A DNA stretch of 64,000 bases from Escherichia phage Es2. The stretch is taken from sequence record OR515477.1. One strand, written 5' to 3'. The notes beneath the pieces are model-generated. The model was not told the DNA's origin, did not search any database, and saw only the letters and a program-made list of their open reading frames with translations. Positions 5,741-33,397 of this stretch are shown piece after piece (within the stretch, counting starts at the first letter, position 1; every line of letters begins with the position of its first letter). A program made the position numbers and the translations under genes.

Positions 5741-5836
5741 AATTTAGGAATTAAGACTATGCGTCCAGGAAAGTTTAAAAAAGCTAATTGGTCTAAAGAG
5801 TATAAAGAATACTTACTTAGTCTAGTAAAACATAAT

Positions 5837-5912
5837 AGTTAGTTGGCAGAGTGGTTATGCACCTCCTTCATACGGAGCGACTACAGTGGTTCAAATCCAC
5901 TACTAACTACCA
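5837..5912 (+). tRNA. tRNA-Met (anticodon CAT), second copy; initiator/elongator/Ile2 not resolved
   Basis: Perfect acceptor AGTTAGT/ACTAACT, anticodon loop TTCATAC, T-arm AGTGG-TTCAAAT-CCACT, CCA. Confidence 0.65.
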
Positions 5913-5949: not shown

Positions 5950-6144
5950 ATGTTAACAATTAAAATAATGTCAGCCAAGAATGGGGAACAGATTCATACA
6001 GGCAAAAGTGTAAGCTTTAATCCTAGAAATAAAAGACTGGCTATAGTTGGAGTAGACCAAGCCATCTTTTTAAAAGAAGATGAAGTAGCATATGTCATGA
6101 ACCAAACTGGTAAGACAGTTTCCGTATACTATGGAAAAGTATAA
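5950..6144 (+). CDS. hypothetical early protein
   Basis: Track ORF 64 aa, AGGAG RBS. Confidence 0.55.
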   Translation: MLTIKIMSAKNGEQIHTGKSVSFNPRNKRLAIVGVDQAIFLKEDEVAYVMNQTGKTVSVYYGKV

Positions 6145-6186
6145 AGAATAAATAGCTGAGCCAAATTCTAACATCGGGGAGATCTA

Positions 6187-6555
6187 ATGAAAGCATATCA
6201 AAACCTTAAATCTGGCGTAATTAATATTGTTCATAATAATCAGATCATTCAGCTATATTCCGATAATGGTGAACTTAAACAGAAAGTTCTAGTTGAAGAT
6301 CTAGAAGGTATCACACCTCACTTTGACCCTGAGGCCTTTCGCATTGTAGATGTGGAAGTGGTTCCTCAAATCGAAGGTGGTCAGCACCTAAATGTCAATG
6401 TATTAAGCCGTGATCAGCTTTTGGATGCGCAGAAACATCCTGAAAAATACCCTCAATTAACTATCCGTGTTTCAGGGTACGCTGTTCGATTTAATGCACT
6501 GACTCGTGAACAACAGAACGACGTTATTAGTCGTACATTTACTCAGGCGATGTAA
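6187..6555 (+). CDS. hypothetical early protein
   Basis: Track ORF 122 aa. Confidence 0.6.
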
Positions 6556-9113: not shown

Positions 9114-9156
9114 GATTGACACTAAGTCAGCTTACTAGCAAAAGCAAATAATGACA

Positions 9157-9193
9157 AAGCCCAGCCTGCACTTTTGCGACTGGGCTATTTTTA
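9157..9193 (+). terminator. intrinsic terminator
   Basis: Hairpin GCCCAG...CTGGGC followed by T-run. Confidence 0.6.
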
Positions 9194-9207
9194 TAATAAA
9201 ATTTTAG

Positions 9208-9236
9208 TTGCTTAGATGCCCAAACTTTTGTATAAT
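9208..9236 (+). promoter_or_regulatory. early-type sigma70 promoter
   Basis: TTGCTT - 17 bp - TGTATAAT, RBS AAGAGGA. Confidence 0.7.
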
Positions 9237-9267
9237 ATGTTTATAGATTGAGGCAAGAGGATTAAAT

Positions 9268-9966
9268 ATGAGGATTATTTCTAAGTTCGCCGATGTGTAT
9301 GATTTGCAGAACAGTTTGTTTGACCCAGATCGTGTGTGGGAACGTAAAACTGAGGAGTTACTGGTTAAAGTAACCGATGATGCAGAAAAGAACATTGTGC
9401 ATACTCGCCAGGTATTTCGTGATGGTTCGCTATCTTTCCGTGGTGATTTCGAATACTTTGTAAACCCACTATTTGTTGCAGGTGAAGTTTACTGGTTACA
9501 CGAGCTGTACTGCTGGCATCCAGCATTTAGCTTCAAAACGTTCAACCTCGACACTATGTTCGATAAAATGGAAGAGATGGGATTGCATGCTCGCTCTTAC
9601 TTAATGGATAAGAGTCGCGGAGATGTTCGTGAAACAATGCGTGATTTGCTCGCTGAAGCAAAACCTAAAGCAGAACGTATCTTATCCGAACTGCGTGTAC
9701 CGATTGCATATGTGAAAGGTATTAAGAAGAACGATAACGATGATGTTCGTAACTTCGTGATTCAGACTAACATTCGTTTCCATCAGTCAGGTATTCCGTG
9801 GCAGGAAATTGAAAGTAACTTATACCGTTTACACCAAGTTCTCGAACAGTATATCTTCGGTGTACTAGGAACTGGTGAGCCTGATATGATTAAAGTATCA
9901 GATAAAGACAGGTTAGCAGCGCATGGATTTGATACAAAAACTTCTTTCAGGAATATGGCAAGGTAA
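9268..9966 (+). CDS. hypothetical early protein
   Basis: Track ORF 232 aa. Confidence 0.65.
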   Translation: MRIISKFADVYDLQNSLFDPDRVWERKTEELLVKVTDDAEKNIVHTRQVFRDGSLSFRGDFEYFVNPLFVAGEVYWLHELYCWHPAFSFKTFNLDTMFDKMEEMGLHARSYLMDKSRGDVRETMRDLLAEAKPKAERILSELRVPIAYVKGIKKNDNDDVRNFVIQTNIRFHQSGIPWQEIESNLYRLHQVLEQYIFGVLGTGEPDMIKVSDKDRLAAHGFDTKTSFRNMAR

Positions 9967-10372
9967 GTGGTATATCCTGGGAGCAGGTCTAGCGATAGGC
10001 ATCGGGTTCGGTGCTTATCACTTAGTAGATAAAGTGGAGACTTTAGCGGGAGATCTTGCGGTAGCTACTAAAAAGATCTCTTCTCTAGAAACTTCCCTTA
10101 ATAAGGTGAAAGCTGAGAGCGAACTTCGGGAGACTCGAATGAACCAGTATTTCACAATGAATAATATTTCGCAAGCAGATCTAGACAAAAAGATTAAGCA
10201 GCTAGATAAAGCTCTTAGTCGTCAAGATATTATAGCTGCAAAGCCTGGATTGGTAACATTAATAGCTAAAAAGCAGAGTAGAGAGTTCGAGGAAAGATTA
10301 GCATGTTTAACTGGAAACTTGGAATACTGCTCGCAGCCGCAATCACAATCACAGGCTGTGCAGAAGAAATAA
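9923..10372 (+). CDS. hypothetical membrane-anchored coiled-coil protein
   Basis: Track ORF 149 aa; N-terminal TM helix; start uncertain (overlaps upstream ORF). Confidence 0.5.
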   Translation: MDLIQKLLSGIWQGKWYILGAGLAIGIGFGAYHLVDKVETLAGDLAVATKKISSLETSLNKVKAESELRETRMNQYFTMNNISQADLDKKIKQLDKALSRQDIIAAKPGLVTLIAKKQSREFEERLACLTGNLEYCSQPQSQSQAVQKK

Positions 10373-21822: not shown

Positions 21823-22532
21823 TTAAAGAAGCCGAAAAATTAAAACGTCTCATCCAGCTAGCGCGGGGTGCTACACAAAAGAGTCTTTCCCAGCTAACTA
21901 ATGAAGAAAAATATGCAGTAATGTTTTTAGGAGATCATTATCCTGCTAGGTGGGATAAAGGTAAGATCAAGTATGATCGTGATGCAAAACAAGTTGTTTG
22001 GTCAGGCTCATATGTAGAAGTGAATAAAGCATTAAAGGCTTTAGATCCTGAAGCAAAAGGTTTCTCTTCTAATGCTATTCATATTCTAATTGATGAAGAT
22101 CTCCCAAGATTTAAGGAAGCATCATTTAAAGAAGCATTAGCTAGTGAAGATCTTATTCCTTTTAAACACGGTAAGTATGCACATCTTCCACCACTAGAAA
22201 AAGAGAAACCTACTCTAGTTAAAGATGAAGTTTATCGTGGGATTGGCACAATGCTAGCGAGTTTGACTGTAGCTCTCCATAAAGATCTAGAGTTAACGCC
22301 CCTAGAAAACGCTGTGCATTTCATGTGCCATAAGTACGAGGATACATTTAAAGAGCTATGTAAGTCGCTAGGAATGCCAAGTTACACGATATTAAACTAT
22401 GCTCCTGAATATACTAGAGCAGCTCGTGGAACTATGGATTACGATGATACAGGATCCACTGCTTCCTATTTAGCAACTTATATCTACTTCGCATCCTTAG
22501 GTATCAAACTCAAATCCAAGAAGGAGGAATAA
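21819..22532 (+). CDS. hypothetical early protein
   Basis: Track ORF 237 aa; last coding gene before the repeat region. Confidence 0.6.
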   Translation: MIKEAEKLKRLIQLARGATQKSLSQLTNEEKYAVMFLGDHYPARWDKGKIKYDRDAKQVVWSGSYVEVNKALKALDPEAKGFSSNAIHILIDEDLPRFKEASFKEALASEDLIPFKHGKYAHLPPLEKEKPTLVKDEVYRGIGTMLASLTVALHKDLELTPLENAVHFMCHKYEDTFKELCKSLGMPSYTILNYAPEYTRAARGTMDYDDTGSTASYLATYIYFASLGIKLKSKKEE

Positions 22533-22549
22533 AAGTTAACAAAAAGTTC

Positions 22550-22579
22550 TTGCATTCTCATACCCAAACATGTTATAAT
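22550..22579 (+). promoter_or_regulatory. sigma70-like promoter firing into the non-coding repeat region
   Basis: TTGCAT - 18 bp - TATAAT; no ORF downstream. Confidence 0.45.
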
Positions 22580-22918
22580 AATCTCATAGATTAACAACTA
22601 CTCTAGTTGATTAACTCTAGGGGCGATGATTATTACACGAATGTCTCGTATAGCTTGCGGCCTAGCAACAGCGGTATGACGGCATGAGTACTCACGTAAT
22701 TAATCACGCGCCCACAGGAGAGACTCTCATGAAATTGGGGGTCTCTTTTTCTTTATATTATTTAAATATTTTTAATGGCAATATCTGTGTTCAAGATGAT
22801 ACACCTGTTGCCGCTCATCTGCTAGGATGGCACAACACTTTCTTCTAGACTCCTAAGTTTCTAGGAATAGTTGAGCACTAACTCTAGAGTTTACATTAAA
22901 CTTTAAATCTGTTTCTCT

Positions 22919-23075
22919 AGTCAACTCAGGCGGTTTTCATATTCCTAGAAACTCTAGCAATAGGCGGTTAATACAGGGCGGTTTTAGGGAGGGCGGTTAT
23001 TTCTAGAAGACATTTTTTGAAAACACATTTCTAGAAATTACTGTCGTATTTGCACACTGCATTTCTAGAAATTTA
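22919..23075. repeat. GGCGGTT direct repeats and ATTTCTAGAAAT palindromic 12-mers
   Basis: Four GGCGGTT(T/A) copies between 22919 and 23000; TTTCTAGAA(A/G) palindromes at about 23010, 23030 and 23062. Confidence 0.7.
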
Positions 23076-23643
23076 TGGTCGGATTTGCACAAACGCCTAA
23101 GTTTTTAGGAACATATAATCTCTTGAAAATGGCAGCATTATTTCGGGCCGAAGGCCCGTGATTGCCTGAGTTTTTAGAGCCACAAGAATTTTCACTTGTC
23201 AAGCTATTTTGCCCCATTTAGCAAATAAAATTTTACTTTATCTCCTCTAATCTCAAATTAACCCAAATCTTCTCAACTCTTCCCCAAAATACCCGCAAAT
23301 CAGGTGCTCCGCACCAAACATGCGCCTCTCCCACAGTTCCCCCAAAATTTCTCTCGCTCTCTCAACTTCTCCCCAAACATACACAATCACACACCCTCCA
23401 ATCGAAGCCACAAAAATCTTGTCGGATTCGCACATCTTAATCCTAGAAAAACCGTGTCGGATTTGCACATACCCCACAGGATTCGAACGCAGTTCGAGAT
23501 TGCTGGAGTTTTTAGGAAAATTCATTGTCGGATTCGCACACTATAAAAATTTTTCGGGTCGGATTTGCACACTACCAAAAATTGTCGGATTCGCACATAC
23601 ACGCCCGCACGTAACACCCGTGGAGCAATGTCGGATTTGCACA
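23042..23643 (+). repeat. eight direct copies of 15-bp motif (T/G)GTCGGATT(T/C)GCACA
   Basis: Copies at 23042, 23077, 23420, 23455, 23525, 23556, 23582 and 23629, all in the same orientation. Confidence 0.85.
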
Positions 23644-23667
23644 AAAGCGCAGGGCAATTGCCCTGCG
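23644..23667. repeat. perfect 24-bp palindrome AGCGCAGGGCAATTGCCCTGCGCT
   Basis: Read directly; centred on CAATTG, immediately after the last 15-bp repeat. Confidence 0.85.
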
Positions 23668-23880
23668 CTAAATGAGAATAAAAATAAGAATCATTCTCAT
23701 TTAGAAAGCGGAATGAGAATGATAATAATTCGCATTTAGAAAGCGAAATGAGAATCAATCTCATTTAAGAACGGAAACGAAAATTATTCAGGAAGTGAAA
23801 CGATTCTCATTTAGAAAGTGGAATGATTCTCATTTAGAAAGTGGAATGCAAATGATAATGATTCGCATTTAAGAATGGAA
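23668..23880. repeat. degenerate repeat family TCATTTAGAAAG(C/T)GGAATGA(T/G)
   Basis: At least six related copies with internal dyads (GAATGATTCTCATTC-like); a further copy at 24207-24232. Confidence 0.7.
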
Positions 23881-24012
23881 GTGAGAAACACTGTTATTTA
23901 AGTTATCCACAGACTTATCAACAGCACGATTTGACTTGACAAAATTCTAGCCATTTTGAGGCGTTATCAACAGACTTATCAACAGCTTATCCTACTGTAT
24001 AAATATACAGTA
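23880..24012. repeat. inverted-repeat arm L with DnaA-box-like 9-mers
   Basis: TTATCCACA at 23903 and TTATCAACA at 23915, 23964 and 23976; palindrome CTGTATAAATATACAG; reverse-complementary to 27111-27245. Confidence 0.8.
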
Positions 24013-24378
24013 TTCCTATGCAGTGAATAATTCTAATATACAGCTAAAACGCTCTCAAACGCATTCTAACGCGTTTAATTTTGGTGGGGATACTAAAACA
24101 CGGGCAAAATTGGAGGAGGCTTAGAAATTAGTTAGCTCGCTAACGATCACACAAGGCGACACGTAACATCCTAACCATTAGCAGGCTAACCATCGCGGGC
24201 GCGGTCAAATGAGAATGATTCTCATTTGAGAATTGGGGGCACTTCCTGATAGTTGCGCCCCGTGATTATTACAGTAGTGGGCAACCTTTACGCTTTGCCC
24301 ATTCCCGCCACTCATCTTGATGTCTAGACTTGCGACGGCGTACTAAAAACCATTTATACCAGTGATTAAACCATCGTT

Positions 24379-24582
24379 TCATAAATCCTCCTCCGGTAGT
24401 CGGTGCGTGATTTTTTCCTCCTCTCCGTAGGAATCCACTAAATGCTGATAATAACCATCGTGATCATAAATCACTTTATCATATTCGCCACGCTCGACCG
24501 CTTGTCGGTTTTCCGGCGTATCTGGCACGTAAAAAACATCAACCATTGTACTGATTTTGGTTACAACAATTTTATTGCTCAT
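24379..24582 (-). CDS. hypothetical small acidic protein
   Basis: Track ORF 67 aa; about 15 Asp/Glu against 7 Lys/Arg; last gene of the leftward operon. Confidence 0.55.
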   Translation of the reverse strand: MSNKIVVTKISTMVDVFYVPDTPENRQAVERGEYDKVIYDHDGYYQHLVDSYGEEEKITHRLPEEDL

Positions 24583-24607
24583 AATAACGCTCCGTTATTA
24601 TATAATC

Positions 24608-24952
24608 TCATTGTGCCACCTTTCGAAACGCTGTTTCAATACTTTCCGCAGTTGACTGAATATACGCGCCTTTCATGATCAGGCGCTCAGTGCATACCTT
24701 ACGGAAGATATTAATAAAATCATCTTCATTTTCTGCAATTAACGCTTCACCCATAACCTGAACGTCACAAGATGCAAAGGTCAAAAATTGAAACGCTAGT
24801 TCACGGGCAACGACCTCATTGATTTTATAATGCGCCTTGCCCTCATAAATATTAATAACGCCCTTATATGTTGGGGAAAGCTGATTTAAATAATTTGCTA
24901 ATAATGCTGGGCGGCAATTAGCAATAAAACGATTGCCTTCATAAATAACCAT
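24608..24952 (-). CDS. hypothetical protein
   Basis: Track ORF 24608..24967 trimmed to MVIYEG start with GGGAGG RBS. Confidence 0.55.
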   Translation of the reverse strand: MVIYEGNRFIANCRPALLANYLNQLSPTYKGVINIYEGKAHYKINEVVARELAFQFLTFASCDVQVMGEALIAENEDDFINIFRKVCTERLIMKGAYIQSTAESIETAFRKVAQ

Positions 24953-25079
24953 TTGACAGCCTCCCAATTAGATAGCCAGATAATAACATAAAGATCCCCA
25001 ATGAAAGGGGGTCATTTTTAAATAGGGTGGCGGTAAAACCGCCAGCCATTGCAAGGATGATAACAATAACGCTTTTCAT
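24939..25079 (-). CDS. hypothetical 46-aa membrane micro-protein
   Basis: Hand translation MKSVIVIILAMAGGFTATLFKNDPLSLGIFMLLSGYLIGRLSNGYL; overlaps neighbouring genes; below track cutoff. Confidence 0.4.
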   Translation of the reverse strand: MKSVIVIILAMAGGFTATLFKNDPLSLGIFMLLSGYLIGRLSNGYL

Positions 25080-25288
25080 AGTACCCCACGAAACGCAGCG
25101 TAAAAGGTGGCAAAATGTTTAACTGTTTCAGCTATCACGTTGCCGCGCTTGTCAAATTTCTTTTCTGTAACACGAAAGGCATTCTTATTACGTGCTACAT
25201 ATTCAATTTTACAATCTTCCCGCTCGAACGTGTTAACATCCACCAGCTTAAAGCCTTTCGAACGTGCAAGAGAAACATTGCGGATCAT
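25076..25288 (-). CDS. hypothetical basic protein
   Basis: Track ORF 70 aa; AGGAG RBS 8 nt upstream. Confidence 0.55.
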   Translation of the reverse strand: MIRNVSLARSKGFKLVDVNTFEREDCKIEYVARNKNAFRVTEKKFDKRGNVIAETVKHFATFYAAFRGVL

Positions 25289-25293
25289 TTTTA

Positions 25294-25440
25294 TTCTCCT
25301 TTACTAGTCATGCAGCCCAGCAGATAAGAAAATGCAGCGATACCCGCGCCAATAATAACCGCGTGAACACCGAAAGCTATTGCAAAAAGGGATAAAATAG
25401 CGCCCAAGATACCTGCTAGAATAGCTCGAAAAATAACCAT
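25294..25440 (-). CDS. hypothetical 48-aa membrane micro-protein
   Basis: Hand translation MVIFRAILAGILGAILSLFAIAFGVHAVIIGAGIAAFSYLLGCMTSKGE; GGAGA RBS; below track cutoff. Confidence 0.45.
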
Positions 25441-25486
25441 TTTCATTCTCCTAGTTTGCGGGGCGAAAGTAACGCCCCGTTATTAC

Positions 25487-25717
25487 TTACATTAAAACAA
25501 TTTTTGCCGCTTGTTTTTTAGTACAGTGTTCCGCTTTCAGGGTATCCAGCAAAAAGCCGGCCGTTTGCTGATCGATTTTATCGGCGTTGTATAGTTCTTG
25601 GATGGTGTTATAAGTTTTAGCAATGCCGAACTCCTGCACCATTTCATGAATGATGGCGCGATTAGATACCCAGCCTTGCGCGGTGAACAGATGACTAGCA
25701 GAAGAATAAGCAACCAT
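25487..25717 (-). CDS. hypothetical protein
   Basis: Track ORF 25487..25750 trimmed to MVAYSS start with GGAGG RBS. Confidence 0.55.
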   Translation of the reverse strand: MVAYSSASHLFTAQGWVSNRAIIHEMVQEFGIAKTYNTIQELYNADKIDQQTAGFLLDTLKAEHCTKKQAAKIVLM

Positions 25718-25835
25718 TTTAAACCTCCAAATTTTTGGGAAAATTTTCAACCGTCCTCAAACGGTGTAAAGGCATTATAACAAAAAAGGTCGCCATAAAA
25801 GGCGACCTTTACAAAACTTTACATTAGATTATTTA

Positions 25836-26846
25836 TTACTCGTTTTCGGTGTTAGTGGTAAAAGTAGAAATATCGATACCTTTTACCATTTCATCAATCA
25901 TTTCAGCGATGTTAAAACTTTGCACCATTTCCAACATTGCCGCTTCCATAGCTGCCCCTGCTACCGCTTTCGCTTTCTGGTTGCTTGGGGCATACTGGTC
26001 AACCGCTACGCTCAGCAGGTTGGCAATTACTACTCGACCGATAGGCGTATCAATATAACCTTTAATCATGAACGGTGCTTTTTTAGCCGCTACTTTCGTA
26101 ATTTGAGTCAGTGCAATTTTACCCGCTTCCAGTTTTGCAGCGTTTACAACGGCGGATTTATTAGCGGCAACGATGTTAGCAATCTTGGTCATGGTATTTT
26201 TTCCTTTATTTTCAGTGATTTGAGTATTAACGCTTTGAGTGTTAGAATTTACAGCATGGTTTTCTACGCTGTCAATAATCTGATCTTCATCTTTCCAGAA
26301 AGAAAAACCAGCGCTTTCTATATCCCCATCATAAATATACGGGTATAGCTCCCGTGGTAACAAAAAATTACCGTCGCCATCAAAAGCCATTATACCGGTA
26401 TATTGAGATCCGTCGTTATCCGGCTTATACCATCCAGCGGGTAAATACTTCCAGATAACATCTAAAAATCCCTCAATGCTAGAAAGTCCATTTATCAGAT
26501 CAAGCCCAATAAGCTCAAAACCATTTATATTAAATGATTGACGGCCTGAATTGCTATGATACGCAACAATAGTATTGCCCTGCGCAACAATAAAATCGGT
26601 ATCCGGCCCCGCTCCCCTGCCCGTAAAGATATGGCAATCCCGATTATGTAAAACTAGCGTTGCCCCTTGCTTATATAAGGGTAGAAAACTATCCATATCA
26701 TAGGCGTCATATTCATCAAAAAAGTTTTGATGAATAGTTTCAACCTTGTTAATAAAATGTTTAATGCTGGTTGACTTGCTACCGTCCAGCAGGTTACGCA
26801 ATGCACCTTTTAAGACGGTTGCGTTATCTGGTTTATAAAGCCTCAT
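25836..26846 (-). CDS. hypothetical protein with Ala/Lys-rich C-terminal half
   Basis: Track ORF 336 aa; first gene of the leftward operon. Confidence 0.65.
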   Translation of the reverse strand: MRLYKPDNATVLKGALRNLLDGSKSTSIKHFINKVETIHQNFFDEYDAYDMDSFLPLYKQGATLVLHNRDCHIFTGRGAGPDTDFIVAQGNTIVAYHSNSGRQSFNINGFELIGLDLINGLSSIEGFLDVIWKYLPAGWYKPDNDGSQYTGIMAFDGDGNFLLPRELYPYIYDGDIESAGFSFWKDEDQIIDSVENHAVNSNTQSVNTQITENKGKNTMTKIANIVAANKSAVVNAAKLEAGKIALTQITKVAAKKAPFMIKGYIDTPIGRVVIANLLSVAVDQYAPSNQKAKAVAGAAMEAAMLEMVQSFNIAEMIDEMVKGIDISTFTTNTENE

Positions 26847-27110
26847 TTGTTCGGCCTCCTCGTTAATCGGTGAGTGAATGATAAAGGTATTTTCTTTCTA
26901 GGGGCAAATATTATTTTACCTTTTTATTTTCTTTGCCTAACTCCTAGTTTTATGCTAATCGCGCAGCGGTACAGTAAAGAGCAAAACACGGCGAAGCCAC
27001 CAGGGCGACGGGTGAAGGCTTTACTTTAATATTACCCCACTGCATTTAGCTCGTTAGAAAGCGATTTAGGCCGCTTAAAATTGATTGCAGTTGTTAACAC
27101 TACCTTTTTA

Positions 27111-27245
27111 CCCTGTATATTTATACAGTAGGATAACCTGTGGATAAGTCTGTGTAAAAGTCCTTATATCGCCGCCTATCATGTCAAGTTATTTTACAAA
27201 ATGTATAAGTCTGTGGATAACTTAAATAATAGTGTTTCTCACTAA
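27111..27245. repeat. inverted-repeat arm R with DnaA-box-like 9-mers
   Basis: TGTGGATAA at 27139 and 27212; palindrome CTGTATATTTATACAG; reverse-complementary to 23880-24012. Confidence 0.8.
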
Positions 27246-27410
27246 CTAATTTATGCAGTTATTATATCGTAAAATATAGTTAGTTGGCTAATAGGATTTT
27301 AAAGTGATTATGAGTCCGCTAATTAAACCTGAAAAACTCATTAGCTAGTCTGCTAATCATTTTGATATAATATAATAGAGATTAAATTAATAACATAAGG
27401 AAACAATTAG

Positions 27411-27929
27411 ATGCCTAAATATAAACATATAGATTATGACCTTTTTAATAGTTACTTTTATTATGATGAAACATCGTTATCATTTTTACGCTGGCGAGAA
27501 GATCATGCCATCGCTGGTGGTTTAAATGGTAATTATTGGCAAGTTGAATTATTAGATAAAGGACAATTCAAAGTACATAGAATTATTTTTTGTATAATGA
27601 ATGGTGGTATAGATAGCGAGCTAATGATTGATCATATTGATCGTAACCCCCGTAATAATAACATTTGGAATCTTCGCGCGGTTGATAGTTCCCAGAATAA
27701 CTATAATAAGACTCCTAGTGAGTATGAAAACTATAAGCGTGCTAATGGTATCCCTAGAAACATTTACGTTAATAAAATTCGCCCCCGTGATAGTTTCGGG
27801 CGTGATTATTTAACTGCTCAAATTAAGAATCCTATTACTAACAAGCGTGTTAGTAAGTCTGGTTATGATTTACAAGAGTTATTATTATGGCTTGAAGCTA
27901 AAAAAGCTGAATTCGGAATTGTCAATTAA
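27411..27929 (+). CDS. HNH endonuclease (homing-endonuclease-like)
   Basis: 172 aa; HIDRNPRNNNIWNLR...SQNNYNK His-Me finger pattern; AT-rich gene inside a more GC-rich module. Confidence 0.65.
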   Translation: MPKYKHIDYDLFNSYFYYDETSLSFLRWREDHAIAGGLNGNYWQVELLDKGQFKVHRIIFCIMNGGIDSELMIDHIDRNPRNNNIWNLRAVDSSQNNYNKTPSEYENYKRANGIPRNIYVNKIRPRDSFGRDYLTAQIKNPITNKRVSKSGYDLQELLLWLEAKKAEFGIVN

Positions 27930-28154
27930 TTTATTTTATAAATTAACTCGTTTAGTCTTGATTTTTAAAAGTCAAGACCTTTTTCAACTATTTTTCAATT
28001 TTGCGGTTGTTAAATATTTGTTAAACCGAAAATAAGCCGCCTAAAACGCCCCAGAACGCGATGAAAGTTTTAGTCATGCCATTGCATTGCCTACCCTCGT
28101 TTATCGCTACCACGAGCTTTTTAGATTTTGTCAAGTAGGGGAAAGCAAATATAA

Positions 28155-28445
28155 ATGAAAAAATTACTTGCCTATCTGCTATGTTTTGTGGTATTCACGC
28201 GCCCGTTTCTTTTAATTTTAGTGTGCCGCGCCCTAGTCGCCGCACGCCGTCCGGTGAATCGTGTCTTTACGTTTCTTTACAAAAATAAGGTTGCGCCATT
28301 TTCGGGAATCCCCTATTATTTATCACGTAGGGCGGCAATGACGAACTACACGGCGGGAAGTTTACCGCCACGCTCTTTAAAAATTGGGTATATCTTAAAG
28401 CCTATCGGCGGTAAACTTATTCATTATAAGGAATCGACGATATGA
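28155..28445 (+). CDS. doubtful ORF (possible small secreted protein)
   Basis: Track ORF 96 aa with hydrophobic N-terminus, but GC-rich and structured region; could be non-coding. Confidence 0.25.
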   Translation: MKKLLAYLLCFVVFTRPFLLILVCRALVAARRPVNRVFTFLYKNKVAPFSGIPYYLSRRAAMTNYTAGSLPPRSLKIGYILKPIGGKLIHYKESTI

Positions 28446-28645
28446 AACAAACGCTTTTGATAACTGGTAAACCAGCTAAAAAATTAGATGGTACTACTAA
28501 AAAATTGTTGACAGTAGCGCAAAGATCCATAAGATATAGATTCACGCAGTACAAGAAAGGCCGCCAGCAAGGTTTAGAAATGATCTGGCGAAATATTATG
28601 ATTGACCTGAAAGAAAATCATAAAAAACTGCAAAAAATTGTTTGA
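28442..28645 (+). CDS. hypothetical small basic protein
   Basis: Track ORF 67 aa; bracketed by a 17-bp perfect inverted repeat. Confidence 0.5.
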   Translation: MKQTLLITGKPAKKLDGTTKKLLTVAQRSIRYRFTQYKKGRQQGLEMIWRNIMIDLKENHKKLQKIV

Positions 28646-28670
28646 CACCCTAGCCGATAGGCTTTAAGAT
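28642..28670 (+). promoter_or_regulatory. sigma70 promoter overlapping an inverted-repeat arm
   Basis: Consensus TTGACA at 28642, 17-bp spacer, TAAGAT at 28665; overlaps IR arm 28653-28669. Confidence 0.5.
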
Positions 28671-28875
28671 GTACCCAGTTCGATGAGAGCGATAACTTGA
28701 TACAATTTGACGGTCGGTGCTTACCATAATGCATCCCGCCCCCTAACTGGGATATAGCGGCCTGAGTGGAGTTCTTTAAATTGATTATAATGGCGAGCGG
28801 ATTGTTACTTATTACCTGCTACTATTTTCTAGTAGGTAATGCGAAACAATCCCCTAAATAACTGGAGTTTATACT

Positions 28876-29127
28876 ATGCAAAACGTTACTAATGCGCCGA
28901 AAATTGGTCAATCCGTTTTTATCCCTTTCGTTACCAAAACGGATGAATTAACCGGAAAAGCCGAACGTATTAAAGGTGCGGCGCTTATGCCGTTCGATAC
29001 AATCGACGCGGTATACGCTGAAAATGAACGCAGTAACAACGGCAAGCCGATTTATAACGTTCGCGTTAAATCCGGCGACGTTGTAAAGGTTGTTCAACGC
29101 AACGAAAAATGGGAAGCTGTACTGTAA
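28876..29127 (+). CDS. hypothetical pre-early protein
   Basis: Track ORF 83 aa, GGAG RBS; followed by a 9-bp-stem hairpin at 29143-29168. Confidence 0.6.
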   Translation: MQNVTNAPKIGQSVFIPFVTKTDELTGKAERIKGAALMPFDTIDAVYAENERSNNGKPIYNVRVKSGDVVKVVQRNEKWEAVL

Positions 29128-29225
29128 TCTAGTGTTAACTTTATATTCCCCTGAAATATGGGGAATATAACGATTAACATTAGTTAATCATAATCCCTTA
29201 AATTAAACTAATAGGAGTTTATATC

Positions 29226-29633
29226 ATGACTAACGCAAAAACCGCAAAATTCGCATGGAATGAAGAAAACACCCAAAAAGCTGTTACCATGTACCAGCAG
29301 TTAATCAACGAAAACGGTTTAGATTTCGCAAATAGTGACGGGCTGAAAGAGATTGCAAAAGCAGTAGGCGCGGCTTCTCCCGTATCCGTTCGCTCAAAAT
29401 TGACCAGTGCAAAAGCCTACCAGAAAAGCGATAAGCCGCGTAAAGTTGGCGGCGGCAGTTCTGTACGCAAAGCGCATTATGTGCGTGTTATTGCTAAACA
29501 TGCCATTGATTCCGGCATTATCAAAGACGCTGACGATCTGGCATCACTGGAAAGTGCAAAACTTGAAACGCTGGACGCGGTAGCGCAATTGCTAGGCGTT
29601 GCCGATGAAGTGAAACAAGCCGCAGGCGAATAA
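29226..29633 (+). CDS. A2: A2-like pre-early protein (putative DNA-binding)
   Basis: 135 aa; position immediately upstream of the A1-like gene; assignment by synteny and size only. Confidence 0.5.
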   Translation: MTNAKTAKFAWNEENTQKAVTMYQQLINENGLDFANSDGLKEIAKAVGAASPVSVRSKLTSAKAYQKSDKPRKVGGGSSVRKAHYVRVIAKHAIDSGIIKDADDLASLESAKLETLDAVAQLLGVADEVKQAAGE

Positions 29634-29722
29634 TAGTTATACATTGCCCTTCCTAGTGGGAGGGCAATAATATAACTGTTTAGCGATAGTTATTTTCTTC
29701 CCTTAAATCAGGAGTTTTAAAA

Positions 29723-29920
29723 ATGATTTTCTTTCCTACTGAATCATTAATTTTAGGCTTGTTTATTATGGCGGCCTCATTATTGTTCGCTTATTTTCAA
29801 AATGATTTAGATTCATATTATTTTAAACGTAAATCTAAGTTAGCAAAGCGTTTAGGTCTGATTTGTTTTATTGCCGCCGTTGCTTGTGGTGTTAGTTCTA
29901 GCCTTATGCCTTTAAATTAA
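29723..29920 (+). CDS. hypothetical membrane protein
   Basis: Track ORF 65 aa, two hydrophobic segments. Confidence 0.5.
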   Translation: MIFFPTESLILGLFIMAASLLFAYFQNDLDSYYFKRKSKLAKRLGLICFIAAVACGVSSSLMPLN

Positions 29921-30016
29921 TGTTGCAAATTATAACGCCTATTATTCAAGGCGTTATATTTGGCAATATTTGCCAATAACAAACGTTTTTTAATCCCTTT
30001 AATGGAGTTTATTACT

Positions 30017-31681
30017 ATGATTATTTCCGCAGAAAAACAAACCGTTATCCTGAAAATGGCCGCTGACTTTAATTTCTATGGTAAACGTCTGCGCGCCACT
30101 AAACTGGAGGTCTGCGACGATATATCAAAAGCGGTCTACGATACAACAAAACACTCGACCGCCATTTGTGATTGGCTGGAAGCAAATAAACCAGTTAAAC
30201 CAAAAGCTGCAAAAGTAGCAAAAGCTATTAAAAACGATGAGCGCCCCGAAGCGGCTGGGATCGTTTCTAGCACGGTTGAACAGTGGGAAGTAAAACAAGG
30301 CAAACGCTTTATTATTACGTCGATTCAGAATAATACTTTCCCGCATAAAAACTTTTTGGCCTCGCTTGAACAGTATGCTAAATACATCGGCGCTGATTTG
30401 CTTGTTTCTAAGTATATTTATAATAAAAACGGCTTCCAAAATGGTGAAGGTGCGGATGGAATCAAATATGATTCCGCGTTCGATAAGTATATTTGCAGCA
30501 AAAACGTGTTTTTAAACAACCGCCGTTTTGCTTTCATGGCTGAAATTAACGTTTTGCCTACCGCAGATTATCCGCTTTCTGGATTCGCTGAAACTGCAAC
30601 GGCGCTTAATCTTGAAGGTCTGGCAATTGGTCACGCTAAAATCACCGCCGAAAGCGTGCCAGCTTTAAAAGGTGAAGTAGTACGCCGCATGTACTCAACC
30701 GGAACGGCAACGCTAAAAAACTACATTCAGCAGAAAGCAGGGCAAAAAGCGGAAGCGCTGCATAACTTCGGTGCGCTGATTGTTGAGTTCGACGAAGACG
30801 GTGAGTTTTTTGTACGCCAGCTTGAAACAATGGACGAAAGCGGGGTGTTTTATGATCTGAATGTTTGCGCTACTCCCGCAGGATGCTATGAAACATCGGG
30901 GCATGTTTTAGGTTTACAATATGGCGACATCCACGCAGAAAAATTAGATGATGATTGTGCCGTTGCGTCATGGGCTGGCGAAAATAGCTTGCTTGATATT
31001 CTTAAACCAAAATATCAGTTTATCCATGACGTTCACGATTTTACATCTCGCAATCATCATAATCGTGCGTCCGGTGTATTCCTAGCGAAACAGTACGCCG
31101 CCGGACGTGATAAAGTTCTGGATGATCTTATCGATACGGGGCGCGTGCTGGAATCAATGGAACGTGATTTTAGTCAAACGATCATTGTTGAATCGAATCA
31201 CGATTTGGCGCTATCCCGTTGGCTGGATGATCGTAATGCTAACATTAAAGACGATCCAGCAAACGCCGAACTATATCACCGCCTGAATGCTGCAATTTAC
31301 GCGGCAATCGGTGAACACGACGAAACGTTTAACGTGTTAGATTATGCGCTGCGCAAGGTTGCAGGTTGCGAGTTTAACGCCATTTTCCTAACAACTGACC
31401 AATCATTTAAAATTGCAGGCATCGAGTGTGGCGTACACGGTCACAACGGCATTAACGGAAGCCGTGGCAATCCTAAACAGTTTAAGAAATTGGGCAAACT
31501 GAACACGGGGCATACGCATACGGCAAGCATTTACGGCGGGGTATACACCGCTGGCGTGGCTGGTAGTCTGGACATGGGTTACAACGTTGGCGCGTCAAGC
31601 TGGACGCAAACGCATTTAATTACCTATGCAAACGGTCAGCGCACTTTGATTGACTTTAAAAACGGTAAATTCTTTGCGTAA
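30017..31681 (+). CDS. A1: A1-like pre-early protein with metallophosphatase motifs
   Basis: Track ORF 29960..31681 trimmed to ATG at 30017 with GGAG RBS (554 aa); ESNHD and GHTHT phosphoesterase-like motifs. Confidence 0.7.
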   Translation: MIISAEKQTVILKMAADFNFYGKRLRATKLEVCDDISKAVYDTTKHSTAICDWLEANKPVKPKAAKVAKAIKNDERPEAAGIVSSTVEQWEVKQGKRFIITSIQNNTFPHKNFLASLEQYAKYIGADLLVSKYIYNKNGFQNGEGADGIKYDSAFDKYICSKNVFLNNRRFAFMAEINVLPTADYPLSGFAETATALNLEGLAIGHAKITAESVPALKGEVVRRMYSTGTATLKNYIQQKAGQKAEALHNFGALIVEFDEDGEFFVRQLETMDESGVFYDLNVCATPAGCYETSGHVLGLQYGDIHAEKLDDDCAVASWAGENSLLDILKPKYQFIHDVHDFTSRNHHNRASGVFLAKQYAAGRDKVLDDLIDTGRVLESMERDFSQTIIVESNHDLALSRWLDDRNANIKDDPANAELYHRLNAAIYAAIGEHDETFNVLDYALRKVAGCEFNAIFLTTDQSFKIAGIECGVHGHNGINGSRGNPKQFKKLGKLNTGHTHTASIYGGVYTAGVAGSLDMGYNVGASSWTQTHLITYANGQRTLIDFKNGKFFA

Positions 31682-31735
31682 TTAAATTATTACCCTAGCG
31701 GCTTGAAATACAGCCGCTATTATAGGAGTCAAAAA

Positions 31736-31993
31736 ATGAAAGTTACATTACCCAAAACATTAGACGAAAAAGCGTTTATTTCCCCCGATGAAATGGAATC
31801 CGATAAAGTTTACAGCTTCGGGCCTATCCTAGCCGCCAAAACTAATACTGATGGAATTATTACAGTCGATTATCGTGATAATGATATTGTTCCCTTTGAC
31901 GATGATGACGCTTTTTACGAGTGGTTAAGCGATAATAATTTACCCGTAAGTGGTGAATTAACGCCGTATCAGATGCAAATCATTATCAAATAA
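31736..31993 (+). CDS. hypothetical pre-early protein
   Basis: Track ORF 31703..31993 trimmed to ATG at 31736 with AGGAG RBS. Confidence 0.55.
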   Translation: MKVTLPKTLDEKAFISPDEMESDKVYSFGPILAAKTNTDGIITVDYRDNDIVPFDDDDAFYEWLSDNNLPVSGELTPYQMQIIIK

Positions 31994-32032
31994 TTTAAAT
32001 CCCCTTATTAAACTAATTGGAGTTTTATAACT

Positions 32033-32425
32033 ATGAAAAAGCAAAATATCCCATTCGACCGCGCTCAGTCCTCAATTGTTCTGGTTTATTCCAACGGCGA
32101 ACGTTACCACGTCGAGGCGGGGCACGTTATTGATGACCTATTAGATTTCAATGACGCTTTGCAGGTTACTACCTTTGCATATACGCAGGGCAAACTAACC
32201 AGCCATATTAAAGCAAAAGGCGTTTATGTTGACACGGTGAAACAAGAAACGATTATCATCGACGCCGTAAAATCCGGCCTAGCCTTTGCAGTTGTCGCGC
32301 CTTGCCTCGCTTGCCTTGATGATCAATTGATTAGTGCAAAGGTCTACACATGTGCGGGGATTCGTTCTAGCGTATCCGGTGAGGATGTTAGTTTTATCGC
32401 TGATGCGTTGGCTTATGGTCTTTAA
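32033..32425 (+). CDS. hypothetical pre-early protein
   Basis: Track ORF 130 aa, GGAG RBS. Confidence 0.6.
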   Translation: MKKQNIPFDRAQSSIVLVYSNGERYHVEAGHVIDDLLDFNDALQVTTFAYTQGKLTSHIKAKGVYVDTVKQETIIIDAVKSGLAFAVVAPCLACLDDQLISAKVYTCAGIRSSVSGEDVSFIADALAYGL

Positions 32426-32505
32426 TAGTTGATTTATTATTGCCCGCTTATAAATAGCGGGTAATGCTGAATTAATCTAATCCCTTAAATGGAGAACGTA
32501 ACAAA

Positions 32506-33240
32506 ATGAGTCAAGTTAAAACGAATATTACCCGCTCTTTCCCGCATATTTCCCGCGTTATGATTTGGGATCTGGACGGCACTATCATTAATTCTTTCCA
32601 TCGTGTAGCGCCTTGTTTTGATAGCGAGGGCAATTTAGATTTAAATAAATATAAAAATGAAGCCTGCAAACATCATTTAATAATGCAGGATTCATTATTG
32701 CCATTAGTTGAATATATGCGCCAGTGTATGAATGACGCTAACACGTTAAACATTATTTGCACCGCTCGACTGATGAGCAAGTCAGATTATTATTTCTTGC
32801 GTAAACAAGGATTGCGGGGGCGTGGAAATAGCAATATCCGCGTGTTTTCCCGCGATACCCTGCACAAATACTTTAAAGCTGATAAAGTTAGCGAGATATA
32901 CCACAGTAAGGACGCAGTTTATAAATCTTATTATTTTGAATTATTTAAACAATTATATCCGAACGCTGATTTTACAATGATTGATGATCATAAAGGCGTG
33001 TTAGCGGCGGCGGCATCATACGGATTTAAAACGCTGGACGCACAAGCCGTTAACGATATTCTATCAATCGGTGTTACATTGATTGGTGAAACCTTTATTG
33101 ATGAATCGCTCGACGATGATAATGATTATCAGTTCCTAGCAGACCGCCTGCAATTATGTTGGGAAGGTATGACCGAGGAAGAACGCGCAGAATATAGTTG
33201 CAGTCCTCAACAGTACATCGAGAAATTAAAAGTTGCATAA
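32506..33240 (+). CDS. dmp: 5'-deoxyribonucleotidase, HAD family
   Basis: 244 aa; HAD motif I IWDLDGTIINS; size and position match my recollection of T5 dmp. Confidence 0.75.
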   Translation: MSQVKTNITRSFPHISRVMIWDLDGTIINSFHRVAPCFDSEGNLDLNKYKNEACKHHLIMQDSLLPLVEYMRQCMNDANTLNIICTARLMSKSDYYFLRKQGLRGRGNSNIRVFSRDTLHKYFKADKVSEIYHSKDAVYKSYYFELFKQLYPNADFTMIDDHKGVLAAAASYGFKTLDAQAVNDILSIGVTLIGETFIDESLDDDNDYQFLADRLQLCWEGMTEEERAEYSCSPQQYIEKLKVA

Positions 33241-33397
33241 TAATTAAAGTTGAAATAGTCACGGTGTGTAATGATAACATGCCGTGACTATTAGTCTGCT
33301 AAGTACCGGGCGGTAATGAGACTCATTCTCATCTGGTGGGCCACTGGACACACCTCCATGTGTAATCTTATGAAATTTGGCAAAAAGGTAATTAGCG

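Follow-up and report, generated by a model that had tools for sequence, protein, structure and literature searches.

The 64,000-nt stretch of Escherichia phage Es2 analyzed here (OR515477.1, hereafter the window) carries two 131-nt arms that lie in inverted orientation on either side of a pre-early operon. Sequence and position make it essentially certain that the arms represent a pair of 131-bp inverted repeats conserved in T5-like phages, IRD'-spacer-IRC' and IRC-spacer-IRD. Each arm joins a cluster of DnaA-type boxes to a palindrome predicted to be a near-consensus LexA operator. On balance, we lean toward an explanation in which the pair acts in cis as a landing pad that would bind the host proteins DnaA and LexA, and does not serve as an origin. 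The arm pair itself is already known, so that finding it adds no new element and rediscovers the repeats underlying the current DnaA hypothesis. The LexA-type operator apparently fused to each box cluster is possibly the only new element.

As judged from its alignments, the window is T5-like (Tequintavirus) and runs in the orientation opposite to T5 (reference record NC_005859). Megablast matched 530 phage records, nearly all of them T5-like phages of Salmonella, Escherichia and Klebsiella, and the top records were ~91% identical to the window across 18 kb; identity to known isolates was ~85-91%. Positions 22790-33259 align collinearly, in reverse orientation, with T5 10608-105, while window 23177 corresponds to T5 121750 (the right-repeat end) and window ~33350 to T5 111532 / position 1. 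Unique T5 DNA is present on both flanks (T5 10608 at window 22790; T5 111445 at window 33643). A single terminal repeat copy thus stands between both unique genome ends, and the sequence therefore derives from an assembly in which the repeat was collapsed or circularized. The T5 early region lies to the left of the repeat, and to its right lies the receptor-binding and late region that precedes the T5 right terminal repeat. According to the T5 record, the terminal repeat is the first-step-transfer DNA, the first to enter the cell. The left arm falls within the non-coding stretch labeled injection stop signal there (iss, T5 9140-10149), a correspondence of position only, and the right arm is situated between an HNH gene and the promoter of the T5.011 operon. 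The A2 and A1 genes lie to the right of the arms, with A2, a member of a DNA-binding protein family, at 29226-29633.

A first-pass annotation of the window had reported six DnaA-box 9-mers and two AT-rich palindromes in inverted clusters around the operon. Sequence reading and pattern search recovered all six 9-mers (TTATCCACA at 23903 and TTATCAACA at 23915, 23964 and 23976 on the plus strand; the complement TGTGGATAA at 27139 and 27212) and both palindromes (CTGTATAAATATACAG, 23995-24010; CTGTATATTTATACAG, 27113-27128), and a repeat finder confirmed that the clusters belong to a true inverted repeat. The arms, 23880-24010 and 27113-27243, are inverted copies 3102 nt apart and 76% identical (100/131). 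They comprise a 39-nt segment (23880-23918 / 27205-27243) that is 97% complementary and a 77-nt segment (23934-24010 / 27113-27189) that is 77% complementary. We found further boxes that the annotation had missed: a consensus box, TTTTACACA, at 27151-27159 and a degenerate one, TTATACATT, at 27200-27208, both on the minus strand, which complete four pairs with a 3-bp gap within each, and a fifth, degenerate 9-mer, TTATCCTAC, present once per arm (23987-23995, plus; 27128-27136, minus) and overlapping the adjoining palindrome by 3 nt in each. The spacers share TTGACA, for which neither sequence reading nor the listing of promoter-consensus matches gave a matching -10 hexamer at usable distance. 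Coordinates of all features are collected in Table 1.

Table 1. Features of the inverted arms and their surroundings in the window.
Feature	Position	Strand	Description
Left arm with LexA-like box at its inner end	23880-24012	+	Orthologue of T5 IRD'-spacer-IRC' (Repeat Region 3); aligns with T5 ~9411-9541
Right arm with LexA-like box	27111-27243	-	Orthologue of T5 IRC-spacer-IRD (Repeat Region 2); aligns with T5 ~6098-6228
Left-arm pair 1-2, TTATCCACA gac TTATCAACA	23903-23923	+	Box 1 consensus in 22/24 genomes; box 2 always the position-6 variant
Left-arm pair 3-4, TTATCAACA gac TTATCAACA, then 2 bp, then degenerate fifth 9-mer TTATCCTAC	23964-23995	+	
Right-arm fifth 9-mer GTAGGATAA and pair TGTGGATAA gtc TGTGTAAAA	27128-27159	-	Pair reads TTATCCACA, TTTTACACA on the minus strand
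Right-arm outer pair	27200-27220	-	Degenerate TTATACATT (27200-27208) and TTATCCACA (27212-27220)
LexA (SOS)-box-like palindrome TACTGTATAAATATACAGTA	23993-24012	none	One mismatch to TACTGTATATATATACAGTA; 25.6 bits
LexA-box-like palindrome CCCTGTATATTTATACAGTA	27111-27130	none	Three mismatches to consensus; 22.5 bits
Outer 23-mer AGTGAGAAACACTGTTATTTAAG	23880-23902; partner 27221-27243	+; partner -	97% complementary; at least 90% conserved in both arm sets; no known binding protein
TTGACA	23936-23941; partner 27182-27187	+; partner -	Sole spacer element common to both arms besides isolated single positions
Pre-early operon, seven open reading frames	24379-26846	-	Homologues of T5.011-T5.017
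Probable T5.011-operon promoter	26878-26907	-	TTGCCC-18-TATCAT consensus match; ~200 nt from the right-arm LexA-like box
Remaining stop-region repeats	23037-23879	none	Direct repeats TGTCGGATT(T/C)GCACA; palindromes of the AATGAGAATGATTCTCATTT type (repeat families D1-D5, I3-I6)
Terminal repeat (first-step-transfer, pre-early region)	~23177-33350 (approximate limits)	none	Single copy, reversed relative to T5, ~10 kb

The orthology to the T5 arms is supported by 84.9% identity in the block of Repeat Region 3 and 86% in the block containing Repeat Region 2. Davison (2020, bioRxiv 10.1101/866236) described two 131-bp inverted repeats in T5, IRC-spacer-IRD (Repeat Region 2) and IRD'-spacer-IRC' (Repeat Region 3). 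In each, a 52-bp spacer accompanies two pairs of DnaA or DnaA-like boxes, the members of a pair standing 3 bp apart, and conservation extends over 25 T5-like phages. The same account dates the first notice of the DnaA boxes to 1987 and traces the nomenclature to Wang et al. (2005). The window matches T5 in terminal-repeat position, arm length, the four box pairs and their gaps, flanking genes, the placement of one arm in the annotated injection stop signal and the degenerate second IRC box. The latter (27200-27208) is common to the window genome, T5 and two other genomes, and the corresponding IRC box was reported as decayed in T5-type phages (bioRxiv 10.1101/866236). Nothing essential differs between the two; only the LexA reading of the adjoining palindrome is made here.

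The boxes are clustered and conserved to a degree that their overall number does not convey. The first-pass annotation had made its claim depend on the 9-mers exceeding expectation, and this holds for the strict pattern TTATCMACA, which occurs seven times in 64 kb against 1.58 expected (0/100 shuffles reached seven). Six of the seven lie inside the 262 nt of the arms. The Poisson estimate of ~1e-16 for this makes the boxes look more independent than they are, since a 12-nt unit is copied within an arm that is itself duplicated. It does not hold for the looser consensus TTWTNCACA, which is not enriched in the whole window (6 vs 8.08 expected, four of the six in the arms); the signal is therefore one of clustering and conservation, not of abundance. 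We compared 24 T5-like genomes, measuring arm identities of the 23 others against the window, and the resulting box matrix (192 instances) reads T T A/t T N C/a A C A, followed by G. Positions 1, 2, 4, 8 and 9 are almost invariant. Most of the variation consists of the A/T choice at position 3 and the free base at position 5, both of which TT(A/T)TNCACA leaves degenerate; position 6 (C or A) varies as well. This pattern supports DnaA-type sites kept by selection, although the matrix does not prove recognition by DnaA. The annotation's DnaA-box reading thus survives as far as selected sites are concerned, without the origin role attached to it.

A replication origin, or a DnaA-dependent initiation site, would fit the clustered and oriented DnaA boxes, and the arms are also somewhat AT-rich (66-67% vs 61% for the window). 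Escherichia coli oriC likewise has clustered same-orientation boxes that include the perfect TTATCCACA, but the arms lack its unwinding 13-mers and GATC cluster and form an inverted pair in pre-early phage DNA. No GATCTNTTNTTTT 13-mer occurs within two mismatches in 23100-24400 or 26850-27420, no GATC lies in or near the arms, and GC skew merely tracks the coding strand and gene orientation. Moreover, both ends of the genome carry the element, in a region expressed before replication. T5 origins were mapped near the genome centre, and the replication genes are still outside the cell when the first-step DNA is inside, arriving with the second-step DNA (Davison 2020, bioRxiv 10.1101/866236). Having looked for unwinding 13-mers, a GATC cluster and a skew switch and found none, we rejected an origin as very unlikely; together with the location in the pre-early terminal repeat and the mid-genome origins of T5, this also removes the "origin-like element" of the first-pass annotation.

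Its alternative suggestion, a DnaA sink, is close to the published proposal that DnaA would hold the DNA during the injection pause. In E. coli, clusters of DnaA boxes outside any origin exist at datA and DARS1/2, where DnaA is titrated or remodeled with IHF assisting. The arms resemble these loci in having a handful of DnaA boxes away from an origin and an IHF core match, TATCAACAGCTTA; they differ in that this match is core-only and in that eight sites per injected DNA could not titrate the DnaA of a cell. The match to the IHF core consensus (WATCAANNNNTTR) is exact, lies at 23977-23989 and overlaps box 4, and the right arm has a copy with one mismatch at 27134. Since the window contains six exact core matches, this is weak evidence for IHF.

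The palindromes adjoining the boxes, described at first simply as AT-rich, are better read as near-consensus LexA boxes, that is, as predicted operators. Matches within three mismatches of the SOS consensus appeared in none of the window shuffles (0.00 expected). We scored the sites with an approximate weight matrix of 24 E. coli SOS boxes, on which the training boxes are self-scored: the arm sites reached 25.6 and 22.5 bits, as compared to 12.5-23.8 for the training boxes. The next best site in the window scored 14.5 bits, and the maximum over 30 shuffles was 16.7. The left-arm site outscores all 24 E. coli boxes behind the matrix, and host LexA would be expected to occupy this palindrome whatever else binds. 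Left arms have both CTG...CAG half-sites intact in 24/24 cases, right arms in 20/24. In the Pectobacterium phage DU_PP_V (locus L118), an additional LexA-like palindrome, TACTGTATGCCTATACAGGT (5826-5845, 18.7 bits), lies in the right-arm spacer, 71 nt from the main one, and phage My1 has a decayed counterpart there. The preprint by Davison (2020, bioRxiv 10.1101/866236) makes no mention of LexA or SOS, and the literature searched, which excludes the papers of 1987, 2005 and 2015, contained no link between T5 or Tequintavirus and LexA sites. The closest parallels are LexA operators of mobile elements, such as the tandem SOS boxes of colicin promoters and those of phage GIL01 and CTX-phi. These share the CTGT-N8-ACAG pattern with an A/T spacer, and the arm sites score at or above host operator strength. 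Unlike them, the arm sites overlap no known promoter, belong to a strictly lytic phage, are fused to DnaA-like boxes and are duplicated in inverted orientation.

As LexA boxes are classical operators, the arms might instead control transcription, with LexA and DnaA modulating pre-early expression in connection with the SOS state that the phage provokes. Such control could work through an arm-arm loop that represses or insulates T5.011-T5.017, or through promoters overlapping the LexA-like boxes. The arms do bracket a single operon, and one of its genes encodes a protein homologous to a nuclease that makes nicks in host DNA where Ung has generated abasic sites (phrog_4227, 25076-25288, the only named family among the seven open reading frames). 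Promoter-like consensus matches also overlap both boxes (plus strand, 27094-27121 and 24004-24031), and another lies just upstream on the minus strand (24058-24030). However, T5 and other relatives do not conserve the -35 hexamers beside the boxes, and the excess of promoter-like matches in the region is modest (24 vs 14.4 in shuffles). The mapped operon promoter, which the T5 record places at 6411-6489, just upstream of T5.011, and which the literature describes as experimentally characterized, is ~200 nt from the right-arm box, and the left arm lies downstream of the operon terminator. Neither LexA-like box overlaps or closely follows a known promoter or a conserved promoter match. For these reasons we rejected a classical LexA/DnaA operator at a promoter, and we consider the broader SOS-linked transcriptional role improbable.

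Between the left arm and the operon terminator, the non-coding stretch 24013-24130 shows good conservation in most of the 24 genomes. It contains a hairpin with a T-run at 24057-24085 (plus strand) and a 10-pair hairpin at 24070-24043 (minus strand), and could be a terminator or a small transcript. An Rfam scan of 22500-28000 for structured RNAs returned nothing near any gathering score.

The arms proved to be a constant feature of these phages. Both were present in 24/24 of the T5-like genomes compared and, in identical arrangement, in 30/30 loci of a set anchored on T5.011 homologues (23 genomes). Ten out of ten two-copy loci in IMG/VR have the same inverted order, with the copies 1.7-4.1 kb apart. 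The inverted duplication that the first-pass annotation had called unusual is thus the rule within the T5-like group. No segment tested is more uniformly conserved than the left arm, whose median nucleotide identity to the 23 other genomes is 94% (minimum 91%), as compared to 90% for the A2 gene and 85% for the T5.011 gene; the median for the right arm is 86%. Arm identity remains at least 91% even where the T5.011 protein is just 55-58% identical.

The two arms also evolve separately. Orthologous arms are 93% (left) and 87% (right) alike, while paralogous arms are 77.1% alike within a genome and 76.8% alike between genomes. With same- and different-genome paralogues equally similar at 77%, we rejected ongoing gene conversion between the arms. 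Kept independently in both are the outer 23-mer, the box pairs, TTGACA in an otherwise unrelated spacer, and the fifth box with its palindrome. In IMG/VR, this last composite motif occurred only on contigs of 96-123 kb, a size that matches T5-like genomes. Among loci anchored on A1, the Pectobacterium phages My1 and DU_PP_V (A1 66-68% identical) retain the box3-box4-box5-LexA core in an arm that has otherwise largely diverged. Where short stretches of these Pectobacterium loci match Serratia and Proteus phages and bacteriophage Eos, they lie exclusively at or beside the arms. The module appears to be confined to the T5-like clade infecting Enterobacterales.

Inverted 131-nt ends around a segment of varying length (1.7-4.1 kb) and varying gene content, such as the T5.017 gene missing in four genomes, might alternatively be what remains of the terminal inverted repeats of a mobile cassette that brought in the variable T5.011-T5.017 set. 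We find this hardly credible. The flanks differ and show no direct target duplication, the seven enclosed open reading frames include no transposase or recombinase family, and the enclosed segment was neither inverted nor relocated in any of 23 genomes; on these three counts the cassette was rejected. Furthermore, conservation of the arms equals or exceeds that of the enclosed genes, and the arm-bounded cassette is absent from IMG/VR outside contigs of T5 size.

What might such a conserved pair of sites do in DNA that has only just entered the cell? In T5, injection pauses without new protein synthesis, A1 and A2 being needed for the restart alone (bioRxiv 10.1101/866236); host or virion factors must therefore act in the pause. 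Both A1 and A2 are required for second-step transfer (T5 record; bioRxiv 10.1101/866236). Davison (2020, bioRxiv 10.1101/866236) proposed that membrane-bound DnaA binds the boxes and halts injection, with both arms involved. Ahead of the measured shear point, no conserved element enters later than the left arm.

Beyond the conservation of the motifs, what we propose is what we infer from them. Each arm would act in cis as a landing pad for DNA-binding proteins that the host already contains when the DNA arrives; it is made up of two same-orientation pairs of DnaA boxes and a fifth degenerate box directly adjoining a predicted, very strong LexA operator. Once the first ~9.5 kb are inside, DnaA, much of which is membrane-associated, and LexA would bind the arm nearest the entry point, and the inverted partner 3 kb upstream would probably be bound too. 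The resulting nucleoprotein complex may help to pause the DNA or anchor it at the envelope during pre-early expression, and would hold it until A1 and A2 release it. We favor binding of DnaA, joined very probably by LexA, at the left arm and its inverted partner. That the fused site serves both host proteins, with LexA either forming part of the pause or anchor complex or coupling the pause to the SOS state, we put forward only tentatively. In the SOS-coupled version, LexA cleavage following the phage-induced breakdown of host DNA would help release.

The main rival to binding by host proteins is recognition by proteins of the phage, followed in second place by the SOS-linked transcriptional role. 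A2 together with A1, acting in transfer restart or in the cutting of first-step DNA that Davison (bioRxiv 10.1101/866236) proposes, or else the packaging machinery from which the terminal repeats arise, could recognize the 12-nt units, the palindrome and the 23-mer, in which case the likeness to host DnaA and LexA sites would be incidental or secondary. The family membership of A2, the requirement for both proteins in second-step transfer and the restriction of the arms to the terminal repeat are all compatible with this, as are the conserved outer 23-mer and TTGACA, which have no host-factor explanation, and the position-6 variants that deviate from the DnaA consensus. Yet the pause happens without phage protein synthesis, the substitutions track the DnaA consensus at precisely its two degenerate positions, the palindrome scores above the host boxes behind the LexA matrix, and A2 has no known binding specificity. 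Taken together, we regard recognition by phage proteins as rather unlikely.

Several observations nevertheless weigh against the host-protein landing pad. Position 6 is A in 54/192 box instances (~28%), outside the stringent consensus TT(A/T)TNCACA, which only some box positions match in the 24 genomes. Low-affinity site arrays in oriC repeat every 11 nt, and the arm pairs every 12 nt. Support for LexA leans on the approximate, self-scored matrix described above. Of the eight boxes, the one at 27200-27208 is degenerate both here and in T5, 4/24 right arms have CAG changed to CAA and thus a broken LexA half-site, and some phages are without the second arm altogether (Davison 2020, bioRxiv 10.1101/866236); the right arm may therefore be dispensable. 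Among more distant metagenomic contigs (L123-L148; A1 36-49% identical, GC 32-63%), no LexA-like box or paired DnaA boxes were present in the flanks of up to 10 kb, a negative that says little, since the hosts of these contigs are unidentified and the equivalent region may fall beyond the contig. A 2023 paper on BF23 states that experimental studies of these sites are lacking, and a 2026 PNAS paper calls the mechanism of second-step transfer poorly understood. Finally, the other repeats of the stop region, which lie closer to the measured shear point than the arms (bioRxiv 10.1101/866236), could be the real brake.

These other repeats correspond to the DRD and DRC/pal repeats of Davison (bioRxiv 10.1101/866236). 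At least seven copies of TGTCGGATT(T/C)GCACA, irregularly spaced and without a known binding protein, straddle the inner terminal-repeat boundary at 23037-23643. Palindromes of the AATGAGAATGATTCTCATTT type occur at 23682-23904 and 24207-24232, including an isolated copy at 24207-24227, just downstream of the last operon gene. At ~23645-23669, a palindrome, AGCGCAGGGCAATTGCCCTGCGCT, with GCGC motifs lies, by approximate mapping, about at the major single-strand nick of T5 (9748/9749). On the other side of the operon, directly outside the right arm, is the HNH homing-endonuclease gene (27411-27929), a homologue of T5 hegG; this insertion comes between Repeat Regions 1 and 2 in some T5-like phages only (bioRxiv 10.1101/866236).

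The stop of T5 injection at 8% of the genome, and its restart minutes later, have been an open question since the 1960s. Comparison across relatives narrows the search within the arms, in that the best-conserved core consists of box3-box4-box5 and the LexA-type operator, and in that the arms evolve independently yet keep the same motifs. The module reaches Pectobacterium phages, and arm-sized similarity also occurs in records of Serratia and Proteus phages. If LexA does take part, genome delivery in a strictly lytic phage would rely on two regulators of the host for its mechanics or its timing.

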